A stretch of 64,000 nucleotides of DNA. It comes from Pseudomonadota bacterium. GTDB lineage: Bacteria; Chloroflexota; UBA6077; JAJPGT01. The DNA lies in assembly GCA_021325655.1 (NCBI GenBank), contig JAJPGT010000043.1, forward strand, positions 207,959 through 271,958, written 5' to 3'. The position numbers were made by a program, and so were the translations under genes. Position 1 is the first letter of the stretch. Every line of letters starts with the position of its first letter. Below the pieces are notes generated by a model, which saw only the letters and a program-made list of their open reading frames with translations, was not told the DNA's origin and made no database searches. Positions 21,131 through 57,374 of the stretch are shown piece by piece.

Positions 21131-21216
21131 TGGCAGCCTGCCTCCCGTTCAGCGGCAATGATACGCCGGGCGGGCGCGGGGATGGCGGCCATGGAGCCTG
21201 GATCGCGGGCGCGGCG

Positions 21217-21555
21217 CTACGCGGAGCGACGGGCGCGTCGTCTGGGCGCCACGGAGACCGGCGGCGCCTGCGGTGCGAGCACCACTGGGGCCGGAGGAGC
21301 GGCCTTACGAGCCTCCCTGGCTCGCGGCTGAGCGGCGAACAGCGACTCGTCGCGGCCCACCAGGAAGTGGTGCGGGAGCATGCTCGGGCTGCCGATGACG
21401 ACTACCGTGGGATGCTCGAACGCTTCCCCTGGGGCGACGTGGCAGCAGTTGGCCTCTACCCCGAAGCGATCGCGGTAGCGCCTGAGTGCATCTTCGAGCC
21501 GGGCCTGGGGCGGACGTCTCGGATCGGGATCGAACCAGAGCAAGCCCTCGCGCAT
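21217..21555 (-). CDS. Hypothetical protein (112 aa): compact ~70-aa N-domain plus Ala/Pro/Arg-rich basic tail
   Basis: ATG 21553-21555 with [10 protein letters not shown] (21561-21567) and a perfect LexA-type box immediately upstream. I recognise no family. Confidence 0.6.
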   Translation of the reverse strand: MREGLLWFDPDPRRPPQARLEDALRRYRDRFGVEANCCHVAPGEAFEHPTVVVIGSPSMLPHHFLVGRDESLFAAQPRAREARKAAPPAPVVLAPQAPPVSVAPRRRARRSA

Positions 21556-21567
21556 CCGCGCACCTCC

Positions 21568-21581
21568 AGAACGTTTGTTCT
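21568..21581. promoter_or_regulatory. LexA (SOS) operator candidate, AGAACGTTTGTTCT
   Basis: Perfect GAAC-N4-GTTC palindrome with symmetric A/T flanks in the 95-bp divergent region between the 112-aa ORF and tsaD. It abuts the RBS of the 112-aa ORF. Confidence 0.6.
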
Positions 21582-21650
21582 ATTGTAGCACGGGTTGCTG
21601 CGCGGCGGCTGGGCACGGCGCTTATACTCTTCTGAGTGAGGGAGCCCACG

Positions 21651-34092: not shown

Positions 34093-34106
34093 AGAACATC
34101 TGTTCT
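34093..34106. promoter_or_regulatory. LexA (SOS) operator candidate, AGAACATCTGTTCT
   Basis: Perfect GAAC-N4-GTTC palindrome starting 1 nt after a TATAAT (34086-34091) and 54 nt before the Rad52-like start codon. Confidence 0.65.
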
Positions 34107-34159: not shown

Positions 34160-34945
34160 GTGGACGCAGCAGTTGTAGTAAAGGATGAGGTGGTGGCCCC
34201 TGAGCAGCAGCGGAGCGGCGCGGGCCGTTCGCTCCAGCCGCCCGAGCGGCGCTCGGTGAAGCGCGCGGAGGCGCAGGAGCCGGCCGCGGAGTTCGCTGAT
34301 CTGTACCAGCGCCTGGCGGCGCCGTTCGATTCCACCTTCAAGGATATCCGCGGCGGGGTAGAGCTGGAGTACATCACCGGCGAGCAGTGCGTCTCACGCC
34401 TGAACGAGGTGCTCGGCGTTGCCGGCTGGTCTTTCCGGATCCTGGAACACGGGATTCACGCCGAAGCCGACGAAGCCTGGGTTCTGGGCGAGCTCACCGC
34501 GAGCTTCGGCGGCGCCCTGGTCACGCGGCAGCAGTTCGGGAGCCAGAAGATCAAGCGGTCGCGCAGCAGCGGCACCCCGCTGGACATCGGGTTCGACCTG
34601 AAGGGCGCGGCGACGGACGCGCTCAAGAAGTGCGCCTCGCTGCTGGGCGTGGGGTTGTACCTGTCGCGCAAGGAGGCGCCCGAGGCGGCGAACGGCGCGA
34701 CCAACGGCCACGCTCATGGCCAGGCCAATGGCGTCACGGCGGCCGAGCCGGAGCGGCTGGTCTGCGACGTGTGCGGCGAGGAGCTGCGTGAGACCCGCTT
34801 CCGCGATGGCACCGTCTGGACCCCGCTGCAGCTCGCTGGCTACGGCCGGCGCAAGCACAGCCGGACGCTGTGCATGACCCATTACCGCGAAGCCAACGAC
34901 GCCCGCAGGCGTGCCGAGGTGACGCTGGAGGAGATGCCCTTCTAA
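34160..34945 (+). CDS. Rad52/Rad22-superfamily single-strand annealing protein (DdrA/Sak-like) with C-terminal zinc-ribbon-like extension
   Basis: AAGGAGG RBS then GTG 34160. [41 protein letters not shown] and [21 protein letters not shown] match the two signature blocks of the Rad52 annealing domain. C-terminus reads CDVCGEEL...LCMTHY. Confidence 0.75.
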   Translation: [261 protein letters not shown]

Positions 34946-43421: not shown

Positions 43422-43468
43422 GCCATCCCCCCGGCGCGTCTCATTGCCGACACAACACGCCTCCGGGC

Positions 43469-43484
43469 TAGAACACGTGTGCTA
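43469..43484. promoter_or_regulatory. Imperfect LexA-type box, TAGAACACGTGTGCTA
   Basis: GAAC-N4-GTGC has one mismatch to GAAC-N4-GTTC. It overlaps a TATACT -10 element upstream of the 77-aa ORF. Confidence 0.3.
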
Positions 43485-43534
43485 TACTGGAGGCCTGGAA
43501 GGGCTCCGGCGGGAGAGCACTGGGGAGTTGAGCA

Positions 43535-43768
43535 ATGGCCGTTGCGATGCGAGAGCCGCTGAGCGCCGACACTGCCGAGCGCACCTGGAGCCGCGCCGAC
43601 CTCCGGCGCGCGCTCGCCCGATTGGAAGAGTGGCTGCATCGCGAGGGCAGGCAGATCCGGGCGCTGCGCGCCGCGGGTGAGGAGGTGCGCCAGCGCGAGC
43701 GCATCTGGCATGAGCGCCTGCGGCAGTACGAGCGGCTCGCCACCCTGCTCCGCTCCTCGGCCCGTTAG
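43535..43768 (+). CDS. Hypothetical coiled-coil protein (77 aa)
   Basis: ATG 43535; Arg/Glu-rich helical sequence. I recognise no family. Confidence 0.45.
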   Translation: MAVAMREPLSADTAERTWSRADLRRALARLEEWLHREGRQIRALRAAGEEVRQRERIWHERLRQYERLATLLRSSAR

Positions 43769-57235: not shown

Positions 57236-57354
57236 CCTTCACCTCACGCGCCGAGATGGTACCCTGTTGCGCCTCCCGACCGGGGACAGGCGGTTGCCAC
57301 GGGCCTCTCTCTGGCACCCCGACCGCCCTTCCCCTCAGGTATACTTGGGTGCTC

Positions 57355-57366
57355 AAACAGGTGTTC
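57355..57366. promoter_or_regulatory. Imperfect LexA-type box, AAACAGGTGTTC, upstream of uvrB
   Basis: One mismatch to GAAC-N4-GTTC. It lies between a TATACT (57340-57345) and the uvrB ATG (57375). Confidence 0.4.
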
Positions 57367-57374
57367 TATTCGCG

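Follow-up and report, generated by a model that had tools for sequence, protein, structure and literature searches.

What does a small gene do in an uncultured soil Chloroflexota bacterium when its ribosome-binding site directly adjoins a perfect LexA-type palindrome? The gene lies in a window of 64,000 nucleotides, which is the whole stretch of DNA analyzed here and was taken from a 5.23-Mb draft genome of 111 contigs with a GC content of 69.7%. To our knowledge, SOS regulons have been little explored beyond Proteobacteria, Firmicutes, and Actinobacteria, and a literature search for the Chloroflexota SOS regulon found no description beyond the LexA box. On the comparative sequence evidence presented below, the small gene probably encodes a conserved, LexA-controlled damage-response protein, a reading to which we assign a probability of about 80%.

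The open reading frame occupies positions 21217-21555 of the reverse strand, with its ATG at 21555-21553 and its stop codon at 21217-21219, and its 112 codons are translated into a protein of 112 amino acids. The ribosome-binding site, GGAGGTG (21561-21567, reverse strand), is located 5 nt upstream of the ATG and is directly preceded on that strand, with no gap, by the palindrome AGAACGTTTGTTCT (21568-21581, no strand assigned). Its sequence, the genome-wide enrichment of its 14-mer, and its conservation identify this palindrome as a LexA-type operator of the Cheo or Gram-positive type. On its other side the operator abuts a putative -10 element, TACAAT (21582-21587), which is preceded by TGc and with it would form an extended -10 (21582-21590, reverse strand), and the operator sits between this element and the ribosome-binding site. 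A consensus promoter scan did not find a full sigma-70 -35/-10 promoter upstream of the frame, and for this reason we infer the -10 element from the sequence. In the aligned orthologues its position is filled by TACAAT, TATAAT, or TAGAAT, and GGAG or GGGG is kept at the position of the ribosome-binding site. An earlier, sequence-only reading of the locus had described a perfect LexA-type box abutting the ribosome-binding site of a 112-residue frame with a basic tail rich in alanine, proline, and arginine; the coordinates and the translation agree with that description, and the tail comprises residues 73-112 and ends in RRRARRSA. Downstream of the frame, no terminator is predicted in the interval 21131-21216, which separates the stop codon from a same-strand enoyl-CoA hydratase gene 86 nt downstream. 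Read-through co-transcription of the two genes is possible, and the hydratase neighbor is not conserved in relatives.

The frame is a real gene. A word-indexed search returned 15 close homologues of 82-158 amino acids with 41-68% identity, one of which, from a Chloroflexota metagenome-assembled genome, is annotated just as "hypothetical protein", and the gene is encoded in eleven genomes of the same order. An exhaustive profile search recovered 1783 clusters at E-values up to 1e-3, including 439 at E-values up to 1e-10, and a profile scan of Chloroflexota genomes placed the family in 67 of 301 genomes, covering 35 of 168 genera. The term "orphan", which the sequence-only reading had applied to the gene, is refuted by these numbers. 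That reading had also left the proposal to stand or fall with conservation and a coding signal in relatives; homologues are abundant, and in the window's gene the GC content of the conserved domain at the three codon positions (0.74/0.47/0.82) is gene-like (tsaD, 0.77/0.49/0.87). The corresponding values of the tail (0.85/0.75/0.72) are atypical of genes in this genome. Related loci were retrieved with an alignment of the close homologues, and the 40 loci that could be named all belong to Chloroflexota, where they are distributed over Anaerolineae, Caldilineaceae, Thermoflexia, and Ktedonobacterales.

Within the protein, conservation spans residues 1-70. G4, L6, W7, D9, A23, and R26 are invariant throughout the family, and M1, E3, L5, K19, C38, and G67 are nearly so. 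Residue C38, which is near-invariant among close relatives, is valine in the Chloroflexia-type homologues, which argues against a catalytic site built on cysteine. Neither the small protein nor nine diverse relatives gave a meaningful match in Pfam, NCBIfam, PHROG, or PADLOC, and the first three of these scans agree with the initial impression that the protein belongs to no recognized family. A literature search likewise found no paper describing the family. Searches of phage and plasmid collections with tblastn found no homologue, and thus the small gene is not an obvious mobile-element gene.

AlphaFold models the conserved domain (residues 1-72; 21340-21555, reverse strand) with a pLDDT of 88.5 and a pTM of 0.74. 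The predicted order of elements is a strand at residues 4-8, a helix at 16-31, and strands at 37-40, 52-55, and 63-67, giving an α/β domain of about 70 residues. The structure prediction of the N-terminal domain that the sequence-only reading had proposed thus yields a confident strand-helix-strand-strand-strand model, and Foldseek searches with both the full-length and the domain-only models found no fold match in the PDB (best E-value 1.7). A Foldseek search of BFVD gave no useful match either, the best (E-value 0.065) being to an unnamed viral protein. No hydrophobic or membrane segment is visible in the sequence of the small protein.

The tail (residues 73-112; 21220-21339, reverse strand) is predicted to be disordered, with a pLDDT of approximately 50-60. 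Tail length varies widely across homologues, the shortest tails having a few residues and the longest several hundred. Its end, RRRARRSA (21220-21243, reverse strand), is a basic motif which we take to resemble the MuA-type recognition signal of ClpX, RRKKAI. The MuA signal itself is reportedly a degron of the ClpX C-motif-2 type, which combines a basic cluster with small or aliphatic C-terminal residues and confers degradation by ClpXP. A similar end, in which a basic cluster is followed by x-A, is found in 23 of 163 family proteins, and 20 of the 163 end in SA. One Caldilineae-type homologue has a huge low-complexity tail. The homologue at locus L065 (G199:C1, ~1620550-1620675) carries a large domain insertion and a low-complexity tail of several hundred residues with KSATPAT-like repeats, and it too ends in a basic motif, RRKRSA.

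The properties of the palindrome can be assessed at the level of the window and of the genome. A pattern scan of the 64-kb window finds two perfect GAAC-N4-GTTC sites, at 21569 and 34094, compared to an expected 0.46, and 8 of 100 shuffled windows reach two sites. The same two had been found when the window was scanned by eye, and none had been missed. In the genome as a whole, the bare 12-mer shows no enrichment (38 observed versus 32-41 expected), whereas the 14-mer AGAAC-N4-GTTCT is enriched about ninefold (8 versus 0.9) and the 16-mer TAGAAC-N4-GTTCTA more than 300-fold (7 versus 0.02). The operator signal resides in the A...T and TA...TA flanks and not in the 12-mer core. The A...T flanks are also what the two perfect boxes in the window had been noted to have in common.

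The genome has a single lexA gene (TIGR00498, 177.7 bits), the promoter of which, TTGACA-17-TAACAT, is followed by TAGAACGTGCGTTCTA and then by the lexA start. This lexA gene forms a transcription unit of its own and faces, in convergent orientation, a gene that was named holA by eye. In a scan with a weight matrix built from ten extended sites, the AGAACGTTTGTTCT site ranks 7th among the sites of the genome, with 30.4 bits, and matches the organism's own box as defined from the lexA promoter. The extended palindrome itself precedes lexA, and versions of it with one mismatch precede recA and uvrB, which bears out the first identification of the box as a LexA-type operator. The second perfect box in the window, TAGAACATCTGTTCTA (34093-34106), is located after a TATAAT and upstream of a gene of the Rad52/22 family (34160-34945; PF04098, E-value 7.5e-10), and further sites from the matrix scan precede genes named by eye as radical-SAM SplB-like, DUF790-like, and helix-hairpin-helix genes. 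Taken by their sequences, the sites at lexA, recA, uvrB, and the Rad52-like gene appear to be those that an SOS regulon with a Gram-positive/Chloroflexi-type box should have. Such regulons, for which the Cheo box CGAAC-N4-GTTCG is the reference, have in common with the present one the core GAAC-N4-GTTC, a putative overlap of box and promoter, and the presence of the same motif at lexA (autoregulation), recA, and uvrB; the difference is that the flanks here reach TAGAAC-N4-GTTCTA. The intermediate form AGAAC-N4-GTTCT has reportedly been assigned to the LexA of Dehalococcoides. A further difference is that the small-protein family is in none of the described SOS regulons found by the literature search.

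Several other sites deserve mention in their own right. The uvrB box GCTCAAACAGGTGTTCTATT (57351-57370), with its one mismatch, is located just after a TATACT and 4 nt before the uvrB ATG, and a ribosome-binding site is absent, so that the uvrB mRNA made under SOS control may have almost no leader or none at all. A box-like site, GCTAGAACACGTGTGCTATA (43467-43486, 20.0 bits), is found 48 nt upstream of a 77-residue open reading frame (43535-43768), the product of which begins with MAVAMREPLSADTAERTW, is rich in arginine and glutamate, and is probably helical, making it a candidate small SOS gene. The best box of the genome, AATAGAACATTTGTTCTATT (C91:39393-39412, 40.7 bits), lies outside the window, between a divergent open reading frame of about 100 residues with its own GGAGGA ribosome-binding site and a gene for a 395-residue protein with a C-terminal membrane domain. 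Finally, strong boxes at C22:11343 and C73:39567 are directly upstream of prophage-like genes (named by eye), namely a terminase-like open reading frame, apparently containing an intein, and a portal-like open reading frame. This suggests that the genome contains LexA-controlled prophages or phage-derived elements.

The link between box and small gene extends well beyond this genome. In the 11 orthologous loci of the same order, the box is always found between the -10 element and the ribosome-binding site; it is perfect in 10 of them and has one mismatch in the remaining one. Its columns are invariant in the 11-locus alignment while the flanking intergenic columns diverge (mean column identity 46%). 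Among 54 further loci, 65 perfect boxes occur in 144.6 kb of upstream sequence, distributed over 42 loci, compared to none in 148.8 kb of downstream sequence. The 12 loci without a perfect upstream box mostly lie on contigs that end early or have a box with one mismatch in or beside a promoter element, and no convincing box was found at L027, L032, and L064. In phylogenetically spread genomes, a perfect box is present upstream of the small gene in 13 of 14, mostly within a TTGACA-box-TAnnAT promoter. Since 297 of the 301 Chloroflexota genomes contain lexA, the mere co-occurrence of the small gene and LexA is uninformative. What is informative is the co-occurrence of the open reading frame and the box, which the sequence-only reading had proposed to look for and which these loci display. 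The operator and the small gene thus travel together across the phylum. From this position and conservation we infer that the small gene is repressed by LexA and induced by DNA damage.

The neighborhood of the gene in relatives gives an indication of its possible function. In Anaerolineae, Caldilineaceae, and Thermoflexia, the small gene is the final gene of a conserved LexA-boxed operon (loci L023-L055; for example, L047:182-3249). In this operon, one or two LexA boxes are followed by lexA, a gene for an ATPase of about 400 amino acids, a gene for a membrane protein of about 135 amino acids, sometimes a DUF6504 gene, and the small gene. As read from the locus maps, the approximately two dozen loci in which the 5′ end is covered all have boxes before lexA or the ATPase gene. 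The ATPase, which is present in 31 of the 40 loci, is soluble and contains FtsK alpha and motor domains (PF17854 and PF01580), and its best NCBIfam similarity is to PRK10263 (region 887-1267). It shares the FtsK alpha and beta motor domains with translocases of the FtsK/SftA type and differs from them in that it is only about 400 amino acids long, has no N-terminal membrane domain, and would be under LexA control. In one genome the arrangement is reduced to tandem boxes, a 277-residue P-loop ATPase, and the small gene.

In 12 Anaerolineae loci, the DUF6504 gene (PF20114) is found directly upstream of the small gene and shares its LexA box. The same holds for two Chloroflexia-type genomes, where the order is box, DUF6504, and small gene. 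A Caulobacter control genome contains a single DUF6504 match, which is consistent with DUF6504 being ImuB-C-like, assuming that this match is ImuB. ImuB-C is a β-barrel with DnaE2 and ImuA as binding partners, and some proteins consist of it alone (Timinskas et al., NAR 2026, PMC12926913). The DUF6504 gene beside the small gene, under a common LexA box, resembles these stand-alone proteins. Unlike polymerase modules with ImuB-C, the operons here are without PolY or DnaE2 and instead contain the FtsK-like ATPase and the membrane protein. A literature search did not find the operon of lexA, ATPase, membrane protein, DUF6504, and small gene described.

Searches of the window's genome found no short FtsK-like ATPase, no counterpart of the operon's membrane protein, and no DUF6504. 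The sole FtsK-like gene of this genome encodes the 754-residue housekeeping FtsK, from which the partner ATPase of the operons is distinct. Given the absence of these partners, this lineage would have to do without any partner-dependent function or put it to another use. Because the ATPase and the ImuB-C-like protein persist as neighbors elsewhere, the most likely role of the domain, tentatively held and based on gene neighborhood, would be to serve damage-induced DNA-handling machinery as a binding or accessory module rather than as an enzyme.

The main rival to an accessory role in DNA handling is that the small protein tunes the SOS circuit itself, acting on RecA filaments or on the cleavage or DNA binding of LexA, as do DinI, RecX, and gp7 of phage GIL01. 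Co-transcription with lexA in many lineages would fit such a role, as would a small, soluble protein with an invariant surface-type motif at its extreme N-terminus and the fact that lineages without the ATPase partner have kept its gene as a solitary SOS gene. Against it, the protein resembles neither DinI nor RecX nor any PDB entry in sequence or fold (no Pfam match, and no PDB fold match at E-values below 1), and the argument in its favor is drawn from context only. We consider this role unlikely.

Less likely still is that the small protein is an SOS checkpoint inhibitor of division or replication, that is, a functional analogue of SulA, YneA, SidA, or ChiZ. The sequence-only reading had leaned toward such an effector, and the likeness is real in several respects, as SulA, YneA, ChiZ, SidA, and DinI are also small, LexA-repressed, and restricted to particular phyla. 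The genes yneA and chiZ adjoin lexA in Bacillus and Mycobacterium, and the frequent position of the small gene beside lexA or in its operon parallels this arrangement. However, the small protein has no homology to these proteins, and the Pfam, NCBIfam, and PHROG scans found no SulA-family similarity, the absence of a Pfam match applying equally to the SulA and the DinI models. Its soluble α/β model also contains neither a membrane anchor nor a LysM domain, unlike YneA, ChiZ, SidA, and DidA. The family differs further in being large (the 1783 clusters mentioned above) and usually encoded in a four- or five-gene operon. Within that operon, the small membrane protein and the FtsK-like motor fit a septum-directed role better, and a function in division or segregation could be assigned to them at least as well. 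A checkpoint role is therefore not favored, given the solubility of the small protein and the presence of a small membrane protein in these very operons.

It is very improbable that the small protein is a diverged Cas2- or VapD-like nuclease of the ferredoxin fold, with the invariant Asp9, which closes its first strand, as the residue used. This idea comes from a sequence-profile search in which five Cas2 chains were among eight weak PDB matches (E-values 0.1-1.1), and from the N-terminal LLWYD, which resembles the (V/I)YD motif of Cas2 in a register with which hhalign agrees. When hhalign compared it with 16 aligned Cas2 proteins from Chloroflexota, however, the family scored a probability of 2.3% over 40 columns, Foldseek found no Cas2 with the two confident models, and the second half of the domain is predicted to be strand-strand compared to the helix-strand of Cas2. 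The Cas2-like identity was rejected on the hhalign result. The Cas2 of the genome itself (PF09827, E-value 3.6e-15) is encoded at C70:19501-19713, which places a CRISPR-Cas locus elsewhere in the genome, outside the locus of the small gene.

The weakest alternative holds that the open reading frame is outside LexA control and that the box either serves the divergent tsaD gene or arose as a palindrome by chance. It can be set aside as scarcely credible, although tsaD is indeed divergent from the small gene here and in G015 and the bare 12-mer is not enriched. The box is located about 55-67 nt upstream of the putative TATACT start region of tsaD, above any -35 element, which would be an unusual place for repression; it accompanies the small gene into wholly different contexts across the phylum, and the extended motif is strongly enriched in the genome. 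The tsaD promoter carries no box in 15 genomes, all from the same order or class, in which the small gene is missing. The single match in these 15 tsaD loci (L076) is inside the coding sequence of an ammonium transporter and has a GC-rich spacer, and G020, in which tsaD is directly beside the ammonium transporter, resembles an empty site. Control of tsaD by the box, which had been raised on the basis of a TATACT near 21621, is thereby ruled out, and the lack of a promoter box at these tsaD loci assigns the box to the small gene and not to tsaD.

Returning to the reading of the gene as a LexA-controlled damage-response gene, the following course of events can be proposed. LexA would bind AGAACGTTTGTTCT directly downstream of the TACAAT -10 element and cover the transcription start and the leader of about 20 nt, so that the small gene would be shut off until DNA damage leads to RecA-stimulated cleavage of LexA and to derepression. 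The product would be a small cytosolic protein with the 70-residue strand-helix-strand-strand-strand domain as its working part. In the lineage of the window, the partners are absent and the gene stands alone with its own operator; it would also have gained a disordered, arginine-rich tail. Speculatively, this tail may be a non-specific extension for nucleic-acid binding or may, as a C-terminal degradation tag, ensure that the protein is removed once repair is complete. A broader proposal, which we regard as more conjectural than the accessory role itself, is that the 70-residue domain founds a fold family that has not been modeled before and was ancestrally a core SOS component of the lexA operon. 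As an SOS regulator or effector of a new type, it would either cooperate with the damage-induced FtsK-type motor and the ImuB-C-like protein or have RecA or LexA as its direct target, and the basic degron would limit its activity in time.

For the organism, the analysis yields a defined operator, TAGAAC-N4-GTTCTA, and a first sketch of the regulon of an uncultured soil Chloroflexota genome. For the family, it yields a large group of uncharacterized proteins and links them to LexA about as firmly as is possible by comparative genomics, together with a conserved operon of lexA, FtsK-like ATPase, membrane protein, ImuB-C-like protein, and small protein. The small protein would thus add to the lineage-specific small proteins under LexA control.
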